Both the position numbers and the translations under genes were made by a program. Shown piece by piece: positions 1 through 60,373 of a DNA stretch of 64,000 bases. How positions within the stretch are numbered: the first letter of the stretch is position 1; the number at the start of each line of letters is the position of its first letter. Origin of the DNA: Candidatus Omnitrophota bacterium (GTDB taxonomy: Bacteria > Omnitrophota > Gorgyraeia > 2-01-FULL-45-10); assembly GCA_023818895.1 (NCBI GenBank), contig JAMWCX010000003.1:219823-283822 (forward strand), read 5' to 3'. The notes under the pieces were generated by a model. That model searched no databases, was not told where the DNA came from, and saw only the letters and a program-made list of their open reading frames with translations.

Positions 1-1625
1 ACCGTCACAAAAGACGAAAAGATATTACCGAATCCCACATCCTTGGCCATGGTGTTAAAAGAATCGGCCATCGCCACGGTGGCAAGGCCGACGGCAAACA
101 GGCGTATGTAAGAGACGACATCCGTAAAACTGTTGACGAAATTGCCGGCCAGCGCGCCCACTCCATGCCCCACGCCCTTGATTATGTTCTTTGATGGACT
201 GGCAAAGAAGAGCACAAGCAAGGCCCCAACCATAAAAAGCCATAACACCTGAGGCGGAAAGTCCTGGCCGAGAATTAGGAGTCTGGCCAGAAAAAAACCT
301 CCCCACAATATCAGCGTCCACCCTATATCGCAAAGAGCCGCCACGGAAGGAATCTTAACCGTCGCCCTCCATAGATGTGCGATGCTTAGATGAAGAGCTC
401 CCATGAAGAAACAAAGCGATTGAACGTTCCTGTCGTCTCTAAGAGCCGGTAAAAGCGGCCTTACGACACCGTGCAGCCATTCCTGGCCGAAAAGCGCGCC
501 CGTCAGAATACCCCATATGATAGCACAACAGCTGAATATATAAAATAGGTAAAAGGCCGATTTGTCAGAGACGCGTTTACCTAATCGAGCGTTGGCAAAC
601 AATGTAATAGCAAGGAATACCGAGCCGTATCCAGCATCTCCTATAAGCATACCAAAAAATATGGATAAAAATATCAAAAACCATAGGCTCATATCAAGCT
701 CTTTATAACCGGGTACCACCTCTATCAGCTTGAAGACGGGGCTTATTATCGAAATCCACTTTGGATTCCTTATCAATGTAGGGACAGCATCGTCTTCCGA
801 AGGATCGGTCACCCATATCCCCCATCTATTACTACAAGCCGATTCCTTCAAAAAACTGACGCTGTCATATGGTACATAGCCAACCAGATATGCTATCTCG
901 CCGGAAGACCCCATGCCGTGAATCGCCTCGTGAAACTCAAGCTCTTTTGAAAATGCGTCACGTATCTTAATGAATCTTTCAAGATAAAATGTATACTTGC
1001 GCAAGGAATCCTTAAGGAGACGCATCATCTCCTTGTCCTCAGCAAGACGCGATCTCATCTCGGCAAGGCCCATGGCGGGAAGGGCCTTTTCTTTAAAAGG
1101 CAGACTTATCTCCTGTCTTGAGATAAGAGCGCAGCGCAAAAGCCCTTTATTACGCTGATCGCCTATCTTTTGCACGATTATGCCGGCAGGCACTTCATTT
1201 ATGCGGTCAGAAGGTATCTCGTAAAGTTTTACGAAGATGTCCTTTTTCTTCAGGTCTTCTATCGCTGCCGGATCGAAATCGCCCCACGGTTCCCACTCGG
1301 CTATTCTGGCGTTAAGGCCTATGCCATATTCCTCAAGGTGGTCTATTCTGGCTCTAATGTCAAGCACATGCTTGGCAACAAAGCGCCAATCCTGCAGGAT
1401 CTTAGCTGGTTTAAGGCCGCTTGATCCCTTCATCTCCGGAGATGATAATATGCCTATTACCTTGGAAAGAGTTGCTATATCTTCATAAAGTGAAGCTATA
1501 TCGGCGCCTTTCGGAACTTGCTGGTGTTCTATATGGAGGACCCCCATTGATCTCAATTTGGAAGCGGTTTCTTTAGAGTCTTCCGAGCGTACGATTATAG
1601 CCACCTTCTTCATCGGAACTATCAT
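1..1625 (-). CDS. atpI: V-type ATP synthase subunit I (membrane a-subunit), N-terminal ~540 aa; C-terminus lies beyond the window edge
   Basis: Reverse-complement of 1625..1560 translates MIVPMKKVAIIVRSEDSKETASKLRSMGVLHIEHQQ, typical subunit I N-terminus. The frame stays open to position 1, so the ORF track misses it for lack of a stop. Its position downstream of subunit D matches the Chlamydia/Treponema operon order E-hyp-A-B-D-I-K. Confidence 0.7.
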   Translation of the reverse strand, partial: MIVPMKKVAIIVRSEDSKETASKLRSMGVLHIEHQQVPKGADIASLYEDIATLSKVIGILSSPEMKGSSGLKPAKILQDWRFVAKHVLDIRARIDHLEEYGIGLNARIAEWEPWGDFDPAAIEDLKKKDIFVKLYEIPSDRINEVPAGIIVQKIGDQRNKGLLRCALISRQEISLPFKEKALPAMGLAEMRSRLAEDKEMMRLLKDSLRKYTFYLERFIKIRDAFSKELEFHEAIHGMGSSGEIAYLVGYVPYDSVSFLKESACSNRWGIWVTDPSEDDAVPTLIRNPKWISIISPVFKLIEVVPGYKELDMSLWFLIFLSIFFGMLIGDAGYGSVFLAITLFANARLGKRVSDKSAFYLFYIFSCCAIIWGILTGALFGQEWLHGVVRPLLPALRDDRNVQSLCFFMGALHLSIAHLWRATVKIPSVAALCDIGWTLILWGGFFLARLLILGQDFPPQVLWLFMVGALLVLFFASPSKNIIKGVGHGVGALAGNFVNSFTDVVSYIRLFAVGLATVAMADSFNTMAKDVGFGNIFSSFVT

Positions 1626-1674
1626 ACACTCACCGATCTTTCTGGCATACCGCTATATTCGGCCATTCTAACGG

Positions 1675-2298
1675 TCATACGGCTGCCCTTTCTACCGCTT
1701 CTATAGCCTTCTCTATCTTATTCTTGGCCATCTTGCTACGGCCAACGGCATTAGTCATCTGGTCGCCTATATATATCTTTATTCGCCTTATCGCATCTTC
1801 GGCTTCTGGGATCTTTATTTTTTCAAAAAGGTTCACTCTCTGAGTCGTGGTGCGAAGCTCCTGTTTAAGTATCTCCATGCCCTGGCGCAGGACCGCTATC
1901 TCCTCCCTCAATGCCTTTATGGCACGAAGGGCTTCCAGCCCTCCGTCCACCCAGAGGGGCATAAGAAATAGATCGTATTCTGCCTTGTCAAACTCGGCCC
2001 TTTCATAGACGGGAATATCGACACCGGCTATATTCTTGAAGGTAGTGATAATCTTGGACGGCGAAAGCCACCGACGGAGATCCACTTCGGGATCAGAGAG
2101 AAGTCCGGCCCAGATTTCCGCATCACGCATCTTCTGTTTTTCGCGCAATTCCGCCGCCTCTATGAAAGAGGCCTGATGGAGTATCTCGGTCTGGAGCTGT
2201 TGTTTTTTAAGCTGAAGTGTCGGCAGATACCTCCTGTATTGGCGCAAGGCGTCTCTCTGCTTCTTCAGTTCACCCTTTGTGTATTTTATTTTTGCCAT
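1675..2298 (-). CDS. atpD: V-type ATP synthase subunit D
   Basis: 207 aa, MAKIKYTKGELKKQRDALRQYRRYLPTLQLKKQQL..., coiled-coil central stalk subunit D pattern, in operon with A/B. Confidence 0.85.
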   Translation of the reverse strand: MAKIKYTKGELKKQRDALRQYRRYLPTLQLKKQQLQTEILHQASFIEAAELREKQKMRDAEIWAGLLSDPEVDLRRWLSPSKIITTFKNIAGVDIPVYERAEFDKAEYDLFLMPLWVDGGLEALRAIKALREEIAVLRQGMEILKQELRTTTQRVNLFEKIKIPEAEDAIRRIKIYIGDQMTNAVGRSKMAKNKIEKAIEAVERAAV

Positions 2299-2314
2299 TG
2301 TGCTTATATTCTGC

Positions 2315-3625
2315 CTATGATGTTTGCGTCGTCTTCTTGGGCCAGTACTTCTCTATGAGGGATTTTTTTATGCCGGTCTCTTCCGGAAGGAAGCATTCGG
2401 CCAAGATATCCCATCCGAGATCAAGAGCCTTCTCAAGAGGAATGTTTACTTCGAGCGACATCATATGCTTTTCGAAAAGTCGACCGTACTTCAGGAGTTT
2501 TTTATCCCATGAGCTCATCTGGAAACCCATGGCCCTCTTTTCAAGTGTCTCGCGGTAATTGGCAAATAGCTGAATCATGGTGTCCATTATCGTCCTATGG
2601 TCATCCCGCGTTTTGCCGTTCACCTGCTGCTTTAGGCGGCTTAAAGAACCGAATGGCTCTATGACATGATTTTTTAGATAGAATTGACCCTCGGTGATGT
2701 AGCCGGTGTTATCCGGCACCGGATGGGTGACATCATCGCCGGGCATTGTAGTGGCCGCAAGTATCGTTATTGATCCTGCTGTGTCAAAATCGACCGCTTT
2801 TTCATATCTGGCCGCAAGCTGGCTGTAGAGGTCACCTGGATATCCCCTGTTCGAAGGTATTTGTTCCATGGTAATGGCTATCTCCTTAAGGGCATCGCAG
2901 AAGTTTGTCATATCTGTAAGTAGCACAAGGACCCGCTTCCCTTCGAGAGCGAAGGCCTCCGCAACCGCAAGGCTTATATCGGGAACCAACAGACATTCGA
3001 CTGTTGGGTCGGCCGCTGTATGCATGAAAAATATCGACCTTGGCAACGCGCCGTGTTCCTCAAGAATGTCCCTGAAAAAAAGATAGTCGTCGTGTTTGAG
3101 CCCCATGCCACCCAGGATTATGATATCCACCTCAGCCTGTATCGCTATCCTGGCAAGCAGGTTATTGTAGGGCTCGCCCGCGACGGAAAATATCGGCAAC
3201 TTTTGGGATTCCACCAGAGAATTGAACAGGTCTATCATCGGTATGCCGGTACGTATCATCTTATTGGGTATGACGCGCTTGACGGGGTTAACCGGCGGAC
3301 CTCCTATGTCGATCATGTTTTCGGATAATGCCGGCCCGTTGTCGAGAGGGGATCCGCTCCCGTTGAAGATACGTCCTAAAAGATTGGGTCCGCTTGCCAC
3401 ACGCATTGGGTGGCCCAAGAATCTCACCCTGTCGCCCGTAGAGACGCCGCGGCTTCCGGCAAATACTTGTAAAGATACGTTCTTCCCGTCAATCCTTATT
3501 ACCTGGGCAAGAGAACTGCCGCGTTGGGTCTGGATATGCGCTATCTCATTATAGCCTATGTCTTCGGCCTCGACCATGATAACGTCACCGGCTATCTGAA
3601 GGATATTTGTGTATATTTTATGCAT
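2315..3625 (-). CDS. atpB: V-type ATP synthase subunit B (regulatory)
   Basis: 436 aa, strong similarity pattern to V/A-ATPase B subunits (…[16 protein letters not shown]…, lacks a canonical P-loop), 8-nt overlap with subunit A. Confidence 0.9.
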
Positions 3626-5372
3626 TAACCTTCTCCTGTCCGGCCTTCAAATAGGCCTTGAGCTTGGTTATAACTTCTGATTCTATTGATTCGAACTCGT
3701 TCGATCCCCACCCAGCAGAGTTCCAGCCGCGGAATAACTGTCTTAAGGCCTGAAAAAACTTCAACGCATCTTCCTTATCCTTAAAATCGAACTGGGATGC
3801 TAGTATGTTGTCGTGGATAAAATGCATCATGTATTTCTGCCGCTCTTCCGATGTCGCCTCATCGACCTTGTCAAAGGCGTTCTGCTGCAGGTAGACAAAA
3901 TCAAAAAATTCGCCTTTCAGATAGTCAACGTAATCTTCCAGAGATGTGCCTTCCTCGCCTATAACCTTCATCATCTGCGCAACGTCATTGGATCTGCGCA
4001 ACGCCATGTGAGCGGCTCTGACCTCTTTCTCTTCAACGAAGCTTTTGTATTTCGACCAGCTGGTGAGAGGATCTATCGCGGGATACTTGCGCGCGTCCGA
4101 ACGCTCGCGCGAAAGCCCGTGAAACGCGCCGACGACTTTAAGAGTCGCTTGAGTGACGGGCTCCTCGAAATTGCCGCCAGCCGGGCTCACTGTTCCGCCT
4201 ATCGTGACAGAGCCGGTGGAGCCATCGTGGAATTTCACTATGCCGGCTCGCTCGTAGAATGACGCTATCCTGGACTCAAGATAAGCCGGAAACGCCTCTT
4301 CGCCGGGTATCTCCTCTAGCCTGCCGGACATCTCCCTCATGGCCTGCGCCCACCGCGAAGTGGAGTCGGCAAGCAGAAGGACATTAAGTCTCATCTGACG
4401 GTAATATTCCGCGATTGTAACGGCTGTATAGACGCTTGACTCGCGCGCCGCGACCGGCATGGAACTTGTGTTGCAGATTATGACCGTCCTGTCCATCAGG
4501 GTCCGGCCGGTCCGCGGATCTGTTATGGTCGGAAAGGTCTTGAGCGTCTCTACGACTTCTCCTGCGCGTTCGCCGCATGCGGCTATGATAACAACATCGA
4601 CGTCCGCATGACGCGATGTAAGCTGCTGTAATACCGTCTTGCCGGCGCCAAACGGGCCAGGTATGCAGTATGTTCCCCCAAGGGCAACGGGAAACAATGA
4701 ATCTATAAGACGCATTTTTGTGACAAGCGTCCTTTCGGGTTTCAGTTTCTGGGAGTAGGCGCGGATCGGTATTTTGACCGGCCAGTTTTGCTTCAAATAG
4801 ACATCATGATGCCGGCCGGACGAATCCTTAAGCCGGGCTATGGGCCTGGTGAAATCATATCTGCCGCGTTCTTCTATATGCGTTACCTCGCATTCCTCTT
4901 CGATGCTGAAAGGAACCATTATATAATGCTTGAATATCTTCTCAGGCACCACTCCAAGTTTGTCGCCGGCGCGCACACAGTCGCCTTTTTTCGCGATAGG
5001 ACTAAAATCCCATTCCATCATATCAGGCAGCGCCTTCAGATAAACGCCTCTTCTAAGGAAAAAACCGCATTCCTTAGCGAGCTGCGGCAGTGGATTCTGT
5101 AATCCGTCGAATATCTGCCCCAGCAGCCCTGGCCCAAGTTCGACCGACAGAAGCTCTTCGCTGAATTCCACCTCCTCGCCCACCTTTAAGCCGCTGGTAT
5201 TCTCGTAAACTTGCGTCTCCGCGCATTTACCCCTGACACGGATAACTTCGGCCTTTAGGCGCTCGTTTCCGTGTATGATATAGGCCACTTCGTTCTGCAC
5301 AATGAAGGAATCGGTCTCGACCTTTACCATATTGCCATTTATGGCGGTTATCCGCCCTTTTCTCTTTGACAC
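3618..5372 (-). CDS. atpA: V-type ATP synthase subunit A (catalytic)
   Basis: 584 aa with P-loop GPFGAGKTV and the non-homologous insert typical of V/A-type A subunits. Confidence 0.9.
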
Positions 5373-5391
5373 CGCATCGCTCCTTAATTAG

Positions 5392-5937
5392 CTATTTTTC
5401 AGCGCTTCCTGCCAATACCTCCTCAAGAAGGCGCTTTCCGTCCGCCGTATTTATCCTATCCCACTTTTCCAGTATCAAAAGCTTTACACCGTATATCACG
5501 AGCGCATCCATATCGAAATAGTGGCCCACGGAAAATTCATCGAGTTTGCGCCAGCGCTCAAGATCAAGTTCCTTTTCGGCTTCGAATAAAGAGGGTTTGC
5601 GATAGGCATTTATCGCTATATGCGCCGCATGCGACGATTCCGGGCGGCCATCTGGCCTTAGATACTTAGCGGGATTAACCTTTTTTCTTGAGGCCCTTAT
5701 TTCAACCAGTTCGTTCCGCACCATGGCATCAAAGGCCCGCCACTTTCTTAATGTTGGGTTCTTTATCTTGTGGGATGGTACCACCTCCGCGTTCTTAAGG
5801 CCACTTAGCGCGGAAAATTCTTCGTCGGATACCAGCGTCTTGCAGGTCGCCAGAAATTTCTCGAAACTTAAAGGCGGTTTAGCCCCGAAGGAAAGCGCCG
5901 GCAGGCTTGAGATAAGATATATGAAATAGGAAGCCAT
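5392..5937 (-). CDS. hypothetical protein conserved between atpE and atpA in Chlamydia-type V-ATPase operons (DUF2764-like)
   Basis: 181 aa; position identical to the uncharacterised ORF between E and A in chlamydial/spirochaetal V-ATPase operons; no recognisable catalytic motif. Confidence 0.4.
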   Translation of the reverse strand: MASYFIYLISSLPALSFGAKPPLSFEKFLATCKTLVSDEEFSALSGLKNAEVVPSHKIKNPTLRKWRAFDAMVRNELVEIRASRKKVNPAKYLRPDGRPESSHAAHIAINAYRKPSLFEAEKELDLERWRKLDEFSVGHYFDMDALVIYGVKLLILEKWDRINTADGKRLLEEVLAGSAEK

Positions 5938-5961
5938 TTTTGGTCTCGAATTTCCTGTTTT

Positions 5962-6567
5962 CTAGACACTCTCTTTTAGTATTTCGGCCAGATACGGGCT
6001 CAGTTGCGATGAAAGATATTCGGCTAAAGCTTTTTCGGTGAAATCGAAATATGATTTGCCGCCGTCATAGCTGATGGTAAATCCACTCCGGATACCGGAA
6101 GAGCTTTTTAGCGTTATGCCCTTTTTGGCCTCCGCACCGAGCTCGGCGAAGAGCGTCTTTTCTACCTTCTCAAGATCCTCTTTCCTTAAGGATATGACAA
6201 CCTTCTCCCTGCTGTGAGGAGAACAACCCTTTATCATCGCTATCAGCATGCCGGCAAGTTCTTCCGGCGAGAGCGTCTTGTGGATGTGCAAAGTAATTAT
6301 CCTGTCAAGCATGGCTGCTATTTCTTTTTTTAAAGATATTAGGATGTCTCGGGAGGCCTGTTTGAGTGATTCTCTTGCACTTGCCTCAATCTTGGCCGCC
6401 TTTTCCGCGGCCTCACTCAGGATGCGCCTGGCCTCCTTTTCCGCCTGCTGTATTTTCTCCTCCGCGCGGCGCCTAGCCTCTTCCTCGATTTGCTCAGCTT
6501 TAGCCTGAGCGGCTTTTATGCCTTCTTCCTGTATCTTGGCTATAAGTCCTTTTAATTCTTCCGCCAT
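5962..6567 (-). CDS. atpE: V-type ATP synthase subunit E
   Basis: 201 aa, highly charged coiled-coil N-terminus (MAEELKGLIAKIQEEGIKAAQAKAEQIEEEARRRAEEK...), first gene of the V-ATPase block. Confidence 0.75.
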   Translation of the reverse strand: MAEELKGLIAKIQEEGIKAAQAKAEQIEEEARRRAEEKIQQAEKEARRILSEAAEKAAKIEASARESLKQASRDILISLKKEIAAMLDRIITLHIHKTLSPEELAGMLIAMIKGCSPHSREKVVISLRKEDLEKVEKTLFAELGAEAKKGITLKSSSGIRSGFTISYDGGKSYFDFTEKALAEYLSSQLSPYLAEILKESV

Positions 6568-24594: not shown

Positions 24595-24978
24595 TCATTT
24601 AATATTACCGATTCTGAACCGCACGTCTTTTATCTTTTTGTTTGGGATGGCTTTCTCTAGCTTGTTAAGTATCTCTTTTTTCCTCATCGTCAGCTCATAA
24701 AGCCAGCTGGAGCTATCCACACTGACCGTTATAACCGCCTTCTTGAGCGTGGTCGGCTTGGAATGTTTGGCGGCGTCATCACCAGCCGCCCGACGCCAAG
24801 CCTCGTCGATCTCTTCGGCACTAACCCGTTCTCCCCCGCTTAGGTTTTTTATCACTTTCCCCAGAATCTCTGAGAGCGGATTTTTGGAAGCGGTGTTTTC
24901 AACTGGGCTGCCTTGGCATAACCACATATACGTATTCATCGCCAATCCTGACCACGCCCGGTTTTGCCGGATCAACAA
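24595..24978 (-). CDS. DUF721 (DciA-like) protein; true start probably internal or non-ATG near 24900-24940
   Basis: 127 aa ORF; LSEILGKVIKNL…W…A…V…S.L.L pattern typical of the DUF721 proteins found after dnaN/recF. As drawn the ORF overlaps the dnaN 3' end by 80 nt, so the N-terminus is over-called. Confidence 0.5.
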   Translation of the reverse strand: MLIRQNRAWSGLAMNTYMWLCQGSPVENTASKNPLSEILGKVIKNLSGGERVSAEEIDEAWRRAAGDDAAKHSKPTTLKKAVITVSVDSSSWLYELTMRKKEILNKLEKAIPNKKIKDVRFRIGNIK

Positions 24979-25999
24979 GCTCCATGTATATGTTTTCTTC
25001 GTCTATGTTTTTTAAAAGATTGATAAGGTAATCCGGGTTGAAACCTATTGAGATATCTTTACCCTTATACTGGGCCTCAAGCTCAACTCTTGCCTCCCCC
25101 ATATGGGGGTCGTTTTTAGAAAGTGTTATTTTGTCGCGTGAGACATCTATTTTTACAAACATCGAGTCATGGCTCGTAAAAAGCGCTGTCCTCTTTATCG
25201 CTGCCAATAGTGGCGCTCTTGCTACAACAATCTTTTCTTTGGCTTCTTCAGGTATAACCTTTTCGTAGTTTGGGAACTCTCCTTCGATCAGTCTTGAGAT
25301 AAGTTTTTTACTGCCTTTATCGAACGATACTTGTTTTTCAGCCAGAAACAACTTGATTTCCTCTTCGCTATCCGCAAGCATCCTGTCTAATTCGTCGACT
25401 GCTTTGGCTGGTAGGATGAACTTCGTTTCCGCTGTCTTTGGTAGCTGTATCTTGTCTTCTGTGACCGCAAGACATCTGCCGTCGGTTGCCGCCAACCTAA
25501 GGTAGGTAGGTTTTATTACAAAAAGTATGCCGTTCAACACATGGCGTATCTCATCATGTCCTATCGCGAAGCTTGTCCTGCGTAGCATAGTCTTTAGTTT
25601 GTTTTGTTTTAAGGTAATGTTGTTTTTGTCTTTGAATTCCGGCGGTTTTGAAAACTCCTCTTCTGGCAGGCCCATTATTTTAAATAGGCTTTTCCCGCAT
25701 TCTATGCTAACAAGATTATTTTTTTTCACAGACACGGATATCGTTTCGTTGTCTGGAAGCTCTTTTACTATTTCCAAGATCTTTTTTGCGGGTATTGTTA
25801 TCGCGCCGGTCATGATCGGTTTTATAGGGAGTATAGATACTATGCCGATATTGAAATCTGTGGCTGTTAACACAATGTTATCGTTTTTTGATTCGATTAA
25901 TATATGTGACAGAATTGGTTGAACGGCTTTTGGGTCTATAACTGTTTGAACTCCTTGAATTCCTTTTAATAAAACCTCTTTGGTGGAAGTAAATCTCAT
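24899..25999 (-). CDS. dnaN: DNA polymerase III beta sliding clamp
   Basis: 366 aa, three-domain clamp pattern, immediately downstream of dnaA. Confidence 0.9.
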   Translation of the reverse strand: MRFTSTKEVLLKGIQGVQTVIDPKAVQPILSHILIESKNDNIVLTATDFNIGIVSILPIKPIMTGAITIPAKKILEIVKELPDNETISVSVKKNNLVSIECGKSLFKIMGLPEEEFSKPPEFKDKNNITLKQNKLKTMLRRTSFAIGHDEIRHVLNGILFVIKPTYLRLAATDGRCLAVTEDKIQLPKTAETKFILPAKAVDELDRMLADSEEEIKLFLAEKQVSFDKGSKKLISRLIEGEFPNYEKVIPEEAKEKIVVARAPLLAAIKRTALFTSHDSMFVKIDVSRDKITLSKNDPHMGEARVELEAQYKGKDISIGFNPDYLINLLKNIDEENIYMELVDPAKPGVVRIGDEYVYVVMPRQPS

Positions 26000-26159
26000 T
26001 TTAAATCCTTTTCTTTTAATTTATTAGATTAGCCAGTAAAAGCATACGTAAAGGTTGTTGATAAGTTAGTAGTTTTTTAACCGAAACAAAATCAAATATT
26101 TACGGAAAAACAAATCCAAAACACAAAACAAAAAATATCCACAACACCAACAAAACGCC
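26000..26159. other. dnaA-dnaN intergenic AT-rich region with DnaA-box-like 9-mers (ATATCCACA 26135-26143; TGTTGATAA 26056-26064); possible second half of a bipartite oriC
   Basis: Two 8/9 matches to TTATCCACA (one in each orientation) and an A/T-rich CAAAACACAAAACAAAAAATAT run, seen directly in the sequence. Confidence 0.4.
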
Positions 26160-27545
26160 TCAATTTTTGATGCTTTCAATAACTTTATCAACAATTGCCT
26201 TTAGCCCCCTTTTGTTTTTCAGATCATTTTCTATTTTATCATAAGCGTGAATCACTGTTGTGTGGTCCCTACCACCAAACTGTTCGCCGATCTCTGGTAG
26301 CGAATAATCTGTGAGTTGCCTTGCCAAATACATCGCTATCTGGCGAGGATAAGCTATTGCTTTAGAGCGCTTCTTTGCCCTCATATCCGAAAGTTTTATA
26401 TCAAAATATTCACTCACTTTTTTCTGAATCAATTCTATAGTGACTTTTTTCTCCCCCTCTATGATCATATCCTTAAGAACTTCTTTTGCGAGTTCAACCG
26501 AAACATCCTTCCCAACAAGTTTGGCATATGCAACAACACGTATTAATGCACCCTCAAGCTCGCGTATATTGGTTCTTATCTTCTCAGCCAAGAAGTAAAA
26601 GACATCCTCAGGCAAAACTATAGTTTCTTTCTCGGATTTCTTCTTTAGTATCGCAATTCTCGTCTCAAAATCAGGCGGTTGTATATCAGTTACAAGCCCC
26701 CACTCAAACCTGGAAACAAGCCTTTCTTCCAACCTCTCTATCTCTTTAGGCGGCCTATCGCTTGAGACAACAATCTGTTTGTGGGCGTCATAGAGCGCAT
26801 TGAAGGTATGGAAGAATTCCTCCTGCGTGGCCTCCTTGCCAGCGATGAAGTGTATATCATCTATTAGAAGTATGTCGACGCTTCTGTATTTTTCCCTGAA
26901 TTTCAAGGTGGTCCGATTCTGGATGGCGCTTATCAGCTGATTAGTGAACTCTTCGCTTGAGATGTAAAGCACGCGGGCCTTCGGAGATTTTTGTAAGACC
27001 CGGTGTCCTATAGCGTGCATCAGGTGTGTCTTGCCGAGGCCGACGCCGCCGTATATAAAAAGAGGATTGTATGCCTTTGCCGGCGAATCCGAAACCGCAA
27101 GCGCGGCGGCATGCGCGAAGCGATTGGATGGCCCTATAACAAAATGGTCAAACGAGTATCTCTCTTGTAGTCCTATTTCCTTCGCTTGGTCCGAAACCGA
27201 TCGTGAAAAAGGCCAAATGCCACGACCCCCCTTCTCTTTTCTAGATGATGCTTCCTGGGCCGATTGCACACCACCGGCCTCCGCAAGCACAAAGTCTATT
27301 TTTAAATCTGAACCACAGGCCTGACGAATAGCGGCATTAAGCGGCTCCATGTAGTGATCCAAAAGCCATCCTCTAAAAAATTCATTAGGTACTTCAAGAA
27401 CGATCGCGTCGCTCTTTAGGGCCAGGCATTTTATCGGTTCGAACCATATATTGTAGGTTCGCTCGTTATCCAGATTCTTCTTAAGTATCTCTTTTGCGCG
27501 AACCCAAGAAGCGTTTCCAGAATCAGACATCAAGCACCCATTCAC
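26160..27545 (-). CDS. dnaA: chromosomal replication initiator DnaA (GTG at 27545, or more likely ATG at 27530)
   Basis: 461 aa, AAA+ Walker A GGVGLGKTHL, sensor and C-terminal DnaA-box-binding domain (…AYPRQIAMYLARQLT…). Confidence 0.95.
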   Translation of the reverse strand: MNGCLMSDSGNASWVRAKEILKKNLDNERTYNIWFEPIKCLALKSDAIVLEVPNEFFRGWLLDHYMEPLNAAIRQACGSDLKIDFVLAEAGGVQSAQEASSRKEKGGRGIWPFSRSVSDQAKEIGLQERYSFDHFVIGPSNRFAHAAALAVSDSPAKAYNPLFIYGGVGLGKTHLMHAIGHRVLQKSPKARVLYISSEEFTNQLISAIQNRTTLKFREKYRSVDILLIDDIHFIAGKEATQEEFFHTFNALYDAHKQIVVSSDRPPKEIERLEERLVSRFEWGLVTDIQPPDFETRIAILKKKSEKETIVLPEDVFYFLAEKIRTNIRELEGALIRVVAYAKLVGKDVSVELAKEVLKDMIIEGEKKVTIELIQKKVSEYFDIKLSDMRAKKRSKAIAYPRQIAMYLARQLTDYSLPEIGEQFGGRDHTTVIHAYDKIENDLKNKRGLKAIVDKVIESIKN

Positions 27546-27911
27546 TTATCCACAATAGTTCGGAGCAAATTCAAGGGAAATTCGGAGGTTATTCACAAGT
27601 TGTTCACAAGCCAAAATTGCCAAAATAGACGATATCACGCGCTATTATATTAAAATATGCTTTAGATTGCAAGAGAAAACATCCCTTGTAACAAAAAAGA
27701 AGGGTTTGATTTTGTCGCACAATAGAATTGCGTAAAAAGGTTATATAACAAAAGGCCTCCAAAGAGGTTAGTGAAAGGTAGTCAAAGACCTTAATCAAAA
27801 GGCGCAGCGATATTATTGTTGTAGATAAAAATTATACTAGACCGGGTAAATAATATTGACTCAACCTTTCTTTATGTTATAATCTACAACGCGAATTTTT
27901 AAAGGAGCGTT
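27546..27911. other. oriC / divergent dnaA-rpmH control region: DnaA boxes TTATCCACA (27546-27554), TTATTCACA (27589-27597), TTGTTCACA (27600-27608), TGTAGATAA (27820-27828) and an AT-rich putative DUE (~27640-27900)
   Basis: One perfect consensus DnaA box plus three 7-8/9 boxes within 366 nt between dnaA and rpmH. The window shows a complete gene-strand switch at this locus, and the surrounding gene order is the canonical one for an origin. Confidence 0.7.
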
Positions 27912-28049
27912 ATGAAATATACACTAAAACCCGGATCAAACATTAAGCGGAAGCGCACGCACGGTTTCCGAAAAAGGATGAAAAGCCGCTGGGGGCGCCA
28001 GGTTCTTTCAAGGCGCAGAAAAAAGGGCCGTCATAAACTGACTGTGTAA
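27912..28049 (+). CDS. rpmH: 50S ribosomal protein L34
   Basis: 45 aa [45 protein letters not shown], a textbook L34; too short for the ORF track. Confidence 0.85.
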
Positions 28050-30279: not shown

Positions 30280-30364
30280 ACTTGACTTTTTGTTGAAAGT
30301 AGTGTAATCTTTTATCAAAATAATCAAAAGAATTTTCAGTGTTTCACGGGGAACATTTTTTATA

Positions 30365-42942: not shown

Positions 42943-43086
42943 GAGACAACGCCGCGATAGGCCCGGCTTTTCTTTTTGCGGATTCCGTGGTATACTTTAG
43001 TCGAGAACGATATCCGCCCTAACCTTTTAACGATGAGCGATGGTAAGAATTTGGCGGATATCGTGCCGGTAGGGTGACAAGAACGA

Positions 43087-43252
43087 AAAATCCCTGCGGT
43101 GCGCGTGATCGGAATGAAGAATCTTGAGCCATTAGCACTAAACTAGGGAGCCTAACTGAGCATACGCCTTGGCGTATGACCGAGGGCACCCACCTGTTCA
43201 TAACAGGGTCAAGATAATTCATATCACAACGGCATTGCGGGGATTTTTTATG
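43087..43252 (+). ncRNA. candidate structured RNA of unknown class (strand uncertain), closed by a 12-bp long-range helix AAAAAUCCCUGC/GCGGGGAUUUUU and followed by a U-tract
   Basis: Seen in sequence: 43087-43098 pairs with 43238-43249. Inside are the hairpins CATACGCC-UUGG-GGCGUAUG (43161-43178) and CCUGUU-CAU-AACAGG. The whole lies in a 457-nt gap with no ORF other than a spurious 79-aa reverse ORF. Confidence 0.25.
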
Positions 43253-43400
43253 GCTCAACTTTTTGGCTTGCCGCCATTAAGATTTCGATAACTGGTCCTC
43301 GGTTGGTATGAGGTATCAAATTTTAAAGAATCGCTAAAGAAGACGCCTAAAAAGTTTTATTGAGCGTTGGTTTGATAAATATCAGGAATAGACAAATACA

Positions 43401-45766: not shown

Positions 45767-45778
45767 ATACACGCAAGT

Positions 45779-45867
45779 TCAGGGGAGGTTGTAAGGCAGC
45801 CTGAGAGTTCCGCGCAATAAGCGGATTACCCGAAGGACCTGATCCGGATAATGCCGGCGTAGGGAAG
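45779..45867 (+). promoter_or_regulatory. TPP (THI-box) riboswitch aptamer
   Basis: …AGGGGAGG…CAGCCUGAGAG…AUUACCCGAAGGACCUGAUCCGGAUAAUGCCGGCGUAGGGAAG… matches the conserved CUGAGA and ACCUGAUC.GGAUAAUGCC.GCGUAGGGAA cores of RF00059; upstream of thiE. Confidence 0.85.
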
Positions 45868-45880
45868 AAACATCAAGGCT

Positions 45881-45906
45881 CTTATGCATCGGCATAAGGG
45901 TTTTTT
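45881..45906 (+). terminator. riboswitch expression-platform intrinsic terminator (CUUAUGC-AUCG-GCAUAAG + GGGUUUUUUAUUU)
   Basis: 7-bp perfect hairpin followed by U6 immediately after the aptamer; the ORF-track ATG at 45884 lies inside this hairpin. Confidence 0.6.
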
Positions 45907-45931
45907 ATTTACAGGCGAGGTGAGCGCTATA

Positions 45932-46576
45932 ATGAGAAAAATAAAAGACCGTAGCCTATACCTTGTGATAAGCGAGGAATATTCGGATGGCAGGCCGGCA
46001 ATTTGGATCGCCGAAAGAGCGGTTGCCGGCGGTGTCGATATAATCCAGATGCGGGAAAAGAATAAATCGATGCAGGAGCTTGTTGAAATCGGCAGCAAGA
46101 TGCGTGATATCTGCCAGAAATCAAGCGCCCTCTTCATCGTAAACGACGATCCGACGCTCGCTCTACAACTGCGCGCAGATGGGGTTCATCTTGGCCAAGA
46201 AGATATAGCCCGTTTTCCGATAAAAAAAGCGAGAGATATTCTCGGCCCCGAAAGGATAATAGGCGTTTCCACGCACTCAATTGAGGAGGCGAAAGAAGCC
46301 TGCGCAAAAGAAGTGGATTATATAGCTTTTGGGCCTATATTTCCAACCGAGGCCAAGGGCTATCATATAGGCAAAGAAGGCATAAAAGAGGTCTTGGCGC
46401 TGGTAAAAAAACCCGTATTTTTCATAGGGGGCATAAATCTGTCAAATATAGCAGAAGTCCTGGCTGAGGGAGGTCGTAATATCGCTCTCATAAGACCGAT
46501 AACTCAGGCGGTGGATGTTGAGTCTGCGGTAAAAAAGTTTAAGAAGGCTCTTATACGGCCGGAAGGAGCAAGATGA
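45932..46576 (+). CDS. thiE: thiamine-phosphate synthase (start re-called to ATG 45932, downstream of the riboswitch terminator)
   Basis: 215 aa from [16 protein letters not shown]…; GAGGT RBS 8 nt upstream; ThiE motifs (…VQLREK-like IQMREK, …GVHLGQED…, …VSTH…). Confidence 0.8.
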
Positions 46577-59929: not shown

Positions 59930-60373
59930 ATGGAAGGCCAGTATTCAGAAAAGGTTATGGAACATTTCAGGAACCCCCATAATGTTGGCGAGATACCGGA
60001 TGCCGACGGCGTAGGAAATGTAGGCAATCCTGTTTGCGGCGACATCATGAGGCTTTATATAAAGGTCGATGAAAACGAGGTTATAACAGACGCTAAATTC
60101 AAGACATTCGGCTGTGGGGCAGCTATAGCCACCTCTAGTATGGTGACCGATCTCGTTAAAGGTAAGACCATAACCGAGGCACTTAGGATATCCAACCGGG
60201 CGGTGGCCGAAGCGCTCGGAGGACTGCCAAAGATAAAGATGCACTGCTCGGTTCTTGCCGAACAGGCTCTTCGTAGCGCGATTAATGATTATCTTGCCAA
60301 ACACGGCAAGCCTACAATTAAGGAGCCTCGCTCGATCCATGAGAATTCTGGTGAACCTAATCTGGGGGATTAA
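59930..60373 (+). CDS. iscU: Fe-S cluster assembly scaffold (NifU/IscU)
   Basis: 147 aa; three cluster Cys (GNPVCGD, GCGAAIA, MHCSVLA). Confidence 0.9.
   Translation: MEGQYSEKVMEHFRNPHNVGEIPDADGVGNVGNPVCGDIMRLYIKVDENEVITDAKFKTFGCGAAIATSSMVTDLVKGKTITEALRISNRAVAEALGGLPKIKMHCSVLAEQALRSAINDYLAKHGKPTIKEPRSIHENSGEPNLGD

Follow-up and report, generated by a model that had tools for sequence, protein, structure and literature searches.

The origin of Pseudomonas lies in a divergent spacer between rpmH and dnaA that carries several consensus DnaA boxes. In Escherichia coli, dnaA is about 42 kb from oriC, and the operator of the gene is unlinked to the origin. The oriC of Bacillus subtilis has incA and incB upstream of dnaA, and downstream, before dnaN, an incC that includes DnaA-boxes 6 and 7, the DnaA-trios and an AT-rich 27-mer. 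This two-part origin unwinds in the dnaA-dnaN interval, and incC itself has been divided into a distal and a proximal subregion of boxes (PMC6669920). Both halves of the origin are needed in vivo in B. subtilis and in Helicobacter pylori, but it is only the dnaA-dnaN or downstream part that unwinds (PMC6669920). In H. pylori the basal unwinding system (BUS), composed of DnaA boxes, a GGG spacer and trios, is found in oriC2, and only oriC2 unwinds (PMC6669920, PMC8287927). The published rules for a BUS call for a DnaA box matching 5'-TTATCCACA-3' with no more than two mismatches, a spacer of 0-16 nt and at least three trios (PMC8287927). On the box strand each trio has the form NTN (3'-NAN-5' on the opposite strand), and the best of them is CTA, or 3'-GAT-5' (PMC8287927). 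In complete curated genomes of Omnitrophota there is a normal two-replichore GC skew, with dnaA at the skew-defined origin and replichores whose genes are nearly all on one strand (bioRxiv 10.1101/2023.11.21.568195).

The window analyzed here is a stretch of 64 kb from an uncultured bacterium of this phylum, and its dnaA locus is very probably the chromosomal replication origin region. The genes gyrA, gyrB, dciA, dnaN and dnaA, recognized from their open reading frames (ORFs) and Pfam matches, are on the minus strand to the left of the spacer that separates dnaA from rpmH. The dnaA gene (26160-27530) encodes 456 amino acids from its ATG, with the Pfam domains DnaA_N, Bac_DnaA and Bac_DnaA_C. 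The gene for the beta sliding clamp, dnaN (24899-25999), has three DNA_pol3_beta domains. Between dnaN and gyrB is dciA (24595-24978), a member of a helicase-loader family (Pfam PF05258 DciA, E = 1.9e-16). To the right, on the plus strand, rpmH for ribosomal protein L34 (27912-28049; Ribosomal_L34) heads a rightward run of rpmH-rnpA-yidD-yidC-parA-parB, in which the genes following rpmH match the Pfam families Ribonuclease_P, YidD, 60KD_IMP, ParA and ParB.

The DnaA of the window is a canonical DnaA protein. It matches the B. subtilis DnaA seen on its BUS in structure 8BTG with E = 5e-149; Ile190, which binds single-stranded DNA, Lys222 and the arginine finger Arg264 are all kept, and domain IV retains its GGRDHTTV motif. 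A start at GTG 27545, which would give the longest ORF, was rejected; the starts called in relatives, alignment A2 and tblastn lead to ATG 27530. With this start the perfect DnaA box precedes the start codon by 15 nt, where the earlier note had put it 1 nt from dnaA, and the spacer, which is indeed divergent between dnaA and rpmH, is really 381 nt long instead of 366 nt. When the sequence is read by eye, a weak Shine-Dalgarno-like GGGTG can be made out between the perfect box and the ATG of dnaA.

The comparison covered nine close relatives (L082-L090), whose DnaA proteins are 73-82% identical to that of the window, and four distant Omnitrophota loci (L002, L003, L016 and L024); the ten Omnitrophota relatives on which the account of conservation in the spacer upstream of dnaA is based have DnaA proteins 63-82% identical. 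The closest public DnaA proteins are 70-82% identical, and all those with an organism name are assigned to Omnitrophota or Omnitrophica. A 5.5-kb contig of GCA_023818765.1 encodes an identical DnaN and a partial DnaA named 'Candidatus Omnitrophica bacterium'; it differs from the window by two SNPs and a run of N. The organism of the window is essentially that of GCA_023818765.1. The core in which rpmH diverges from dnaA-dnaN-dciA-gyrB is common to all nine close relatives and to L016 and L024, dciA has the same position between dnaN and gyrB in all relatives, and the parB-parA-yidC-rnpA run is seen wherever a relative's contig extends far enough.

In a greedy ORF map, all 23 long ORFs to the left of the spacer are on the minus strand, as are dciA and a tRNA-Glu gene. 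To the right, 38 of 40 long ORFs are on the plus strand, together with rpmH, yidD, iscU, three tRNA genes and that for 6S RNA. Neither of the two minus-strand ORFs on the right was accepted as an exception to co-orientation: one is the shadow of the 6S RNA gene (43088-43247), and the other, without a Pfam match, is the shadow of an iscU/nifU-like plus-strand ORF at 59930-60373. Apart from these two shadows the complete strand switch described earlier holds, and co-orientation is unbroken for 27 kb leftward and 36 kb rightward of the locus. The GC skew is zero or negative in all 2-kb windows that start at or before 26001, and positive from 27001 onward. Its cumulative minimum is at about 27.5-27.7 kb at a resolution of 200 nt; this minimum is local to the 64-kb window, which cannot show a chromosome-wide one, and the skew is confounded with coding strand because all of the genes are co-oriented. 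The locus thus lies where both GC skew and gene orientation switch within these 64 kb. The flip in GC skew recurs in nine of the ten relatives that have both flanks. A parS-like sequence, TGTTTCACGGGGAACA, matching at 14 of 16 positions, is present at 30340-30355, immediately upstream of parA and 2.4 kb from the origin locus. A scan against Rfam found no RNA families in 26000-28000, and the spacers are therefore not known RNA genes or riboswitches.

The window contains 23 DnaA boxes with no more than one mismatch, compared to 12.0 ± 3.8 expected, and none of 100 shuffles reached this count. Of the 23 boxes, seven are located in 26056-27828. The densest 366-nt and the densest 2-kb box windows of the whole 64 kb are both at the dnaA locus; the box scan suggested with the earlier note has its peak for the whole window here. 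When the window and eight relatives were taken together (nine loci), the spacer upstream of dnaA had 5.4 boxes per kb and the dnaA-dnaN spacer 9.8 per kb, compared to 0.35 per kb elsewhere, which is a 15- to 28-fold enrichment in the two spacers. The cluster goes beyond chance, and it is split by dnaA into boxes at 27546, 27589 and 27600 on one side and boxes at 26056 and 26135 on the other. The assignment of the origin to the dnaA locus thus stands, on the enrichment of boxes, the skew flip, the strand switch, synteny, the parS-like site and the published complete genomes; what changes is the part played by each element.

The spacer upstream of dnaA (27531-27911) has a GC content of 33-37%, compared to about 48% for the window. 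The perfect box that had been reported is there: TTATCCACA (9/9; 27546-27554, plus strand), which is TGTGGATAA in the orientation of dnaA and lies in the dnaA leader. It is accompanied by four sequences matching at 7 or 8 of 9 positions, where three had been counted. Two of them, TTGTTCACA (7/9; 27600-27608, plus strand) and TTATTCACA (8/9; 27589-27597, plus strand), are the first and second members of a tandem pair with a start-to-start distance of 11 bp, the first being the nearest to the dnaA promoter. The box-like TTATCTACA (8/9; 27820-27828, minus strand) is in the variable middle of the spacer and is unconserved, with no counterpart at that position in relatives; together with 27877-27890 it makes up an imperfect inverted repeat of 14 nt. 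The box-like TAATCTACA (7/9; 27880-27888, plus strand) overlaps the -10 region of the rpmH promoter and was rejected as a real DnaA site. A promoter scan of the spacer found exactly two promoters, which are divergent and of the sigma-70 type. The dnaA promoter, TTGCAA-17-TATAAT, is at 27644-27672 on the minus strand (10/12 in the consensus scan), and the rpmH promoter, TTGACT-16-TATAAT with an extended TG, is at 27856-27883 on the plus strand (11/12). The low GC content bears out the long AT-rich stretch of the earlier note, but since the promoter at 27644-27672 is kept in relatives, that stretch is mainly the dnaA promoter, and 27856-27883 belongs to the rpmH promoter.

Conservation in the upstream spacer is confined to the two promoters and three leader boxes in the same orientation; there is no other conserved block. 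Among eight close relatives (L082-L089) the spacer is as short as 228 nt and as long as 650 nt. The layout of the leader is kept, with the tandem pair 11 bp apart and the third box about 54 bp farther on, 14-20 nt ahead of the start codon. The invariant columns of alignment A2, which covers the window and nine relatives, cluster in the three leader boxes; positions 1-8 of the perfect box are invariant and the ninth is nearly so. The 27589 box is kept as TGTG(A/C)ATAA in all close relatives, and the 27600 box as TGTG(C/A)ACAA in relatives. Upstream of the boxes, a dnaA promoter block, cTTGCA(a/t)..N17..TATAAT, could be aligned in most relatives, and the reverse complement of the rpmH promoter (gagtcaa ... 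attata) is also kept. In the window, as in the relatives, the boxes from 27608 to 27546 are placed between the promoter, which runs from 27672 to 27644, and the ATG at 27530. From its sequence, this arrangement can be read as an autoregulatory operator or as the non-unwinding half of a two-part origin.

A different reading, analogous to the origin of Pseudomonas, treats oriC as a single unit within 27546-27911; the AT-rich part of this spacer would unwind, and the dnaA-dnaN boxes would serve only to regulate dnaN or to titrate DnaA. The perfect box and four boxes of 7-8/9 are all there, the boxes at both ends of the spacer face inward, the spacer is low in GC, and the strand switch and the fine-scale skew minimum coincide exactly with it. 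The least stable 30-mer of the upstream spacer, 27810-27839, is also the sixth least stable in the window and adjoins the 27820 box, so that a species-specific opening at this point is possible. However, the promoters of dnaA and rpmH account for the AT-rich blocks, that of dnaA for the main one, the DNA between the promoters is unconserved, and the 27820 box is missing from relatives. In L085, L086, L088, L089 and L090 the spacer is about 230-255 nt long, which leaves little room beyond two promoters and the leader boxes. A search for AT-rich direct repeats of the 13-mer type yielded short two-copy matches only. The window scan found no BUS in 27546-27911, no module of box plus trios occurs in this spacer in any of the 13 loci, and the best rank attained by an upstream-spacer BUS candidate was third in any locus. 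An origin confined to this spacer is therefore unlikely, and the claim that 27546-27911 is oriC itself, with its own AT-rich unwinding element, gives way to one of promoters and leader boxes.

The spacer between dnaA and dnaN (26000-26159), of 160 nt, is richer in AT than any other stretch of the region. GC content over the 200 nt of 26000-26199 is 27.5%, the lowest value in 24-31 kb, and the 100-bp window 26001-26100 has a stability z of 3.2. In nearest-neighbor calculations of duplex stability at 30, 60 and 100 bp, both spacers have z of about 3, but the same or a greater degree of instability is seen in several ordinary intergenic regions, and duplex stability therefore does not discriminate. 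The distal DnaA box, ATATCCACA (26135-26143, plus strand), is TGTGGATAT in the orientation of dnaA. The proximal box, TTATCAACA (8/9; 26056-26064, minus strand), points toward dnaN. Conservation in alignment A1 is centered mainly on these two boxes and is highest in the proximal one. The distance between them, 79 bp in the window, is 79-80 bp in all ten family members (the window, L082-L089 and L090), L087 being counted after its proximal box was re-registered by 9 nt. The candidate unwinding region (26000-26055, minus strand) consists of ACCT, the triplets TTA CGT ATG CTT TTA CTG, and then an AT-rich tract that extends to the dnaN ribosome-binding site.

These sequences were evaluated as a BUS with a score matrix inferred from the worked examples of Pelliciari et al., 2021 (PMC8287927). 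In control loci from Firmicutes, the scanner placed the dnaA-dnaN BUS at the top in ten of ten, with scores of 18-27. The candidate BUS of the window, running from 26064 to 26034, conforms to the published rules in form, with a one-mismatch box, a spacer of 10 nt and four trios; its score of 8, with p = 0.096 against shuffles, does not rise above background. The trio-like run is weak and is broken at CGT. Equal or higher scores occur in coding DNA of the window, and a scan of the window by itself was rejected as a means of locating the unwinding site. The relatives give a stronger signal, with scores of 11-25 at the homologous site. The BUS candidate at the proximal box was at the top of the whole 8-13 kb locus in eight of 13 loci and second in three more, and the trio run had p < 0.05 against composition-matched shuffles in 11 of 13; since the relatives share a phylogeny, these counts are not independent. 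In L083 the candidate reads TTATCAACA GGCT CTACTACTGCTTTTGCTTTTT and scores 16, and in L090 it reads TTATCAACA GCCA TTAATACTATTATTTCTG. The scores are 25 in L084, 19 in L085 and 24 in L087, where the candidate is behind a box with three mismatches. Because the signal in the window is weak, the placement of unwinding at 26000-26055 draws on the homologous position and on the relatives.

The window probably has a two-part origin of the B. subtilis/H. pylori type, opening between dnaA and dnaN. The interval 27546-27911 would be its promoter and operator half, and the candidate opening site would be 1.5 kb to the left. An origin located solely in the dnaA-dnaN spacer, as in Mycobacterium and Streptomyces, would make the upstream boxes a dnaA operator with no role in initiation. 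This would fit the three conserved boxes upstream, all of which follow the dnaA promoter and precede the start codon. The dnaA-dnaN spacer has a distal and a proximal box of its own, separated by a constant 79-80 bp, and could be self-sufficient; a minimal incC of B. subtilis functions under over-production of DnaA (PMC6669920). Against it are the requirement for both halves in vivo in B. subtilis and H. pylori (PMC6669920) and the conservation of the leader boxes, which is as strict as that of the dnaA-dnaN boxes. Such an origin is not separable from the two-part model on sequence alone, and it is considered improbable. It is highly improbable that the origin is elsewhere on the chromosome and that the locus is, like dnaA in E. 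coli, a divergent operon boundary with autoregulatory boxes: 64 kb are in view and the skew could reflect coding strand alone, but co-orientation is unbroken over 27 kb and 36 kb, the change of skew sign recurs in relatives, boxes are 15-28 times as dense in the two spacers as elsewhere, the locus contains a conserved BUS-like module, parAB and a parS-like site are close neighbors, and dnaA sits at the skew origin in complete genomes of Omnitrophota (bioRxiv 10.1101/2023.11.21.568195).

If the two-part origin operates as its counterparts do, DnaA would occupy the distal box at 26135-26143 and the proximal box at 26064-26056. From the proximal box an oligomer of ATP-DnaA would grow along the trio-like repeats of one strand, and the AT-rich DNA at 26000-26055 would then melt. 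DciA, encoded two genes away, may aid in loading the helicase. The bidirectional forks that follow would be co-oriented with essentially every gene but dnaA, since an opening in the dnaA-dnaN spacer makes dnaA the only gene of the window to be transcribed head-on to a fork. On the other side of dnaA, binding of DnaA to the leader boxes at 27600, 27589 and 27546, which are in the transcribed dnaA leader, would be expected to repress the gene's own transcription. These boxes may also act as an auxiliary half of the origin, in which DnaA is concentrated.

A more tentative proposal extends to the lineage as a whole. It may share a compact, conserved two-part origin, with a three-box leader operator, an inverted distal box 79-80 bp from TTATCAACA, and trios. 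In the window the trios (TTA CGT ATG CTT TTA CTG) would have decayed, and opening, compared to that in Firmicutes, may owe more to the auxiliary boxes, to transcription from the promoters nearby or to factors linked to DciA. If all of this is true, oriC architecture would be described here for the first time at the sequence level in a phylum that has almost no cultured members and in which gene co-orientation is nearly 100%.

The feature itself is an ordinary one, for which the earlier note was right at the level of the locus and imprecise at the level of the elements. The position of dnaA at the origin and the one-strand layout have already been published for Omnitrophota; what is added here is a refined annotation and an architecture conserved in the family. 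The origin anchors genome coordinates and the orientation of the replichores, and it explains why the genes of the window are laid out on one strand to each side. In the annotation, the candidate unwinding site moves to the dnaA-dnaN spacer and the start of dnaA to ATG 27530. Another phylum would be added to those supporting a widespread B. subtilis-type module of box plus trios between dnaA and dnaN.

Among known systems, B. subtilis resembles the window in having rpmH divergent from dnaA-dnaN and a cluster of boxes on either side of dnaA, the upstream one of which overlaps the promoter and leader of the gene. The downstream spacer is also laid out as in B. subtilis, with a distal subregion, a proximal box, a spacer of 4-5 nt, trio-like repeats of the CTA/TTA type and an AT-rich tract before dnaN. 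In B. subtilis, and in the window on the two-part model, dnaA is the sole gene head-on to the fork. There are differences as well. The downstream spacer has two boxes compared to seven in incC, and three boxes are conserved upstream. The proximal box is usually TTATCAACA, mostly single, with no clear tandem pair, and the distal box lies in inverted orientation at a constant 79-80 bp. The runs of trios are shorter and interrupted, scoring 8 in the window and 11-25 in relatives, compared to 25 in B. subtilis (PMC8287927 Table S1). The gene for the loader is dciA rather than dnaD, dnaB or dnaI, and dciA replaces recF between dnaN and gyrB.

As in the window, H. pylori has two clusters split by dnaA, oriC1 upstream and oriC2 downstream, but its boxes are off-consensus, of the TCATTCACN type, and its flanking genes differ, whereas the boxes of the window are near the E. 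coli consensus. Compared to an origin of the Pseudomonas type, the conserved content of the upstream spacer in this family is two promoters and the leader boxes, without conserved AT-rich repeats or trios. The operators of dnaA in E. coli (the P1/P2 box) and B. subtilis (the dnaA promoter boxes) are like the window in having high-affinity boxes of the same orientation between promoter and start, with an 11-bp tandem. The putative operator of the window differs from that of E. coli in its position, 1.5 kb from the candidate unwinding site.

The dnaA leader of the relatives carries a fourth conserved motif, TTTGTGTTGAAA, between the tandem DnaA boxes and the start-proximal box (columns ~137–151 of alignment A2, which comprises the window and nine relatives). 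Its counterpart in the window is TTTCCCTTGAAT, located within 27555–27588 on the minus strand, and the motif may represent a low-affinity DnaA site. When genes are called automatically, dnaA is made too long at its 5′ end and runs through the DnaA box nearest the start: in the close relative L090 (602–650) the called protein has 474 aa, and in the window (27531–27545) the longest ORF starts at a GTG that lies 15 nt too early.

In L002, a more distant Omnitrophota MAG (1–6000), the rpmH-yidC-parAB block is missing upstream of dnaA and is replaced by co-oriented ORFs. The leader boxes are nonetheless in place, as is the BUS between dnaA and dnaN, with the sequence TTATCCACA GGTG TTATTACTTCTA.

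The last codons of dnaA, which encode ..VDK.., contain TTATCAACA (26185–26193, plus strand), and this sequence forms a perfect inverted repeat of 10 nt with the proximal box of the dnaA-dnaN spacer (26055–26064). Box-like sequences arise from the same ..VDK.. codons in the relatives, and a perfect TGTGGATAA is found at the corresponding codons of another distant Omnitrophota locus, L003. The box-like sequence may be functional, or else it may be a by-product of the conserved peptide.

On the rpmH side of the spacer, an imperfect inverted repeat of 14 nt, GTTGTAGATAAAAA / TTATAATCTACAAC, flanks the rpmH promoter on both sides (27818–27831 and 27877–27890). Its right arm is shared with only one relative, L082; the repeat may be due to chance or may be a lineage-specific operator. 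Farther out, a parS-like palindrome, TGTTTCACGGGGAACA (30340–30355), lies 10 nt from parA on its upstream side and matches TGTTTCACGTGAAACA at 14 of 16 positions. By our own estimate, matches of this quality are expected by chance about 0.02 times per 64 kb.

Between 25000 and 32000, ~7 kb around the origin, the GC content falls to 38–44%, compared to 47–52% in the rest of the window. This region includes the coding DNA of dnaN, dnaA, yidC and parA.

Elsewhere in the window there are a 6S RNA gene (43088–43247, plus strand; Rfam RF00013, 72 bits) and a TPP riboswitch (45771–45883, plus strand; RF00059, 62 bits) directly upstream of an ORF at 45884–46576. A minus-strand ORF of 79 aa (43019–43258) was rejected as a shadow of the 6S RNA gene.

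In many bacteria recF occupies the place between dnaN and gyrB. Here that position is held by dciA (PF05258; 24595–24978, minus strand), as it is in all relatives. The longest dciA ORF overlaps the 3′ end of dnaN by 80 nt, and the true start is therefore probably further downstream. The neighboring gyrB of the window encodes 861 aa and lacks an intein, whereas gyrB of the relative L087 (7032–9371), called at 1276 aa, carries an inserted intein (PF14890, Intein_splicing).
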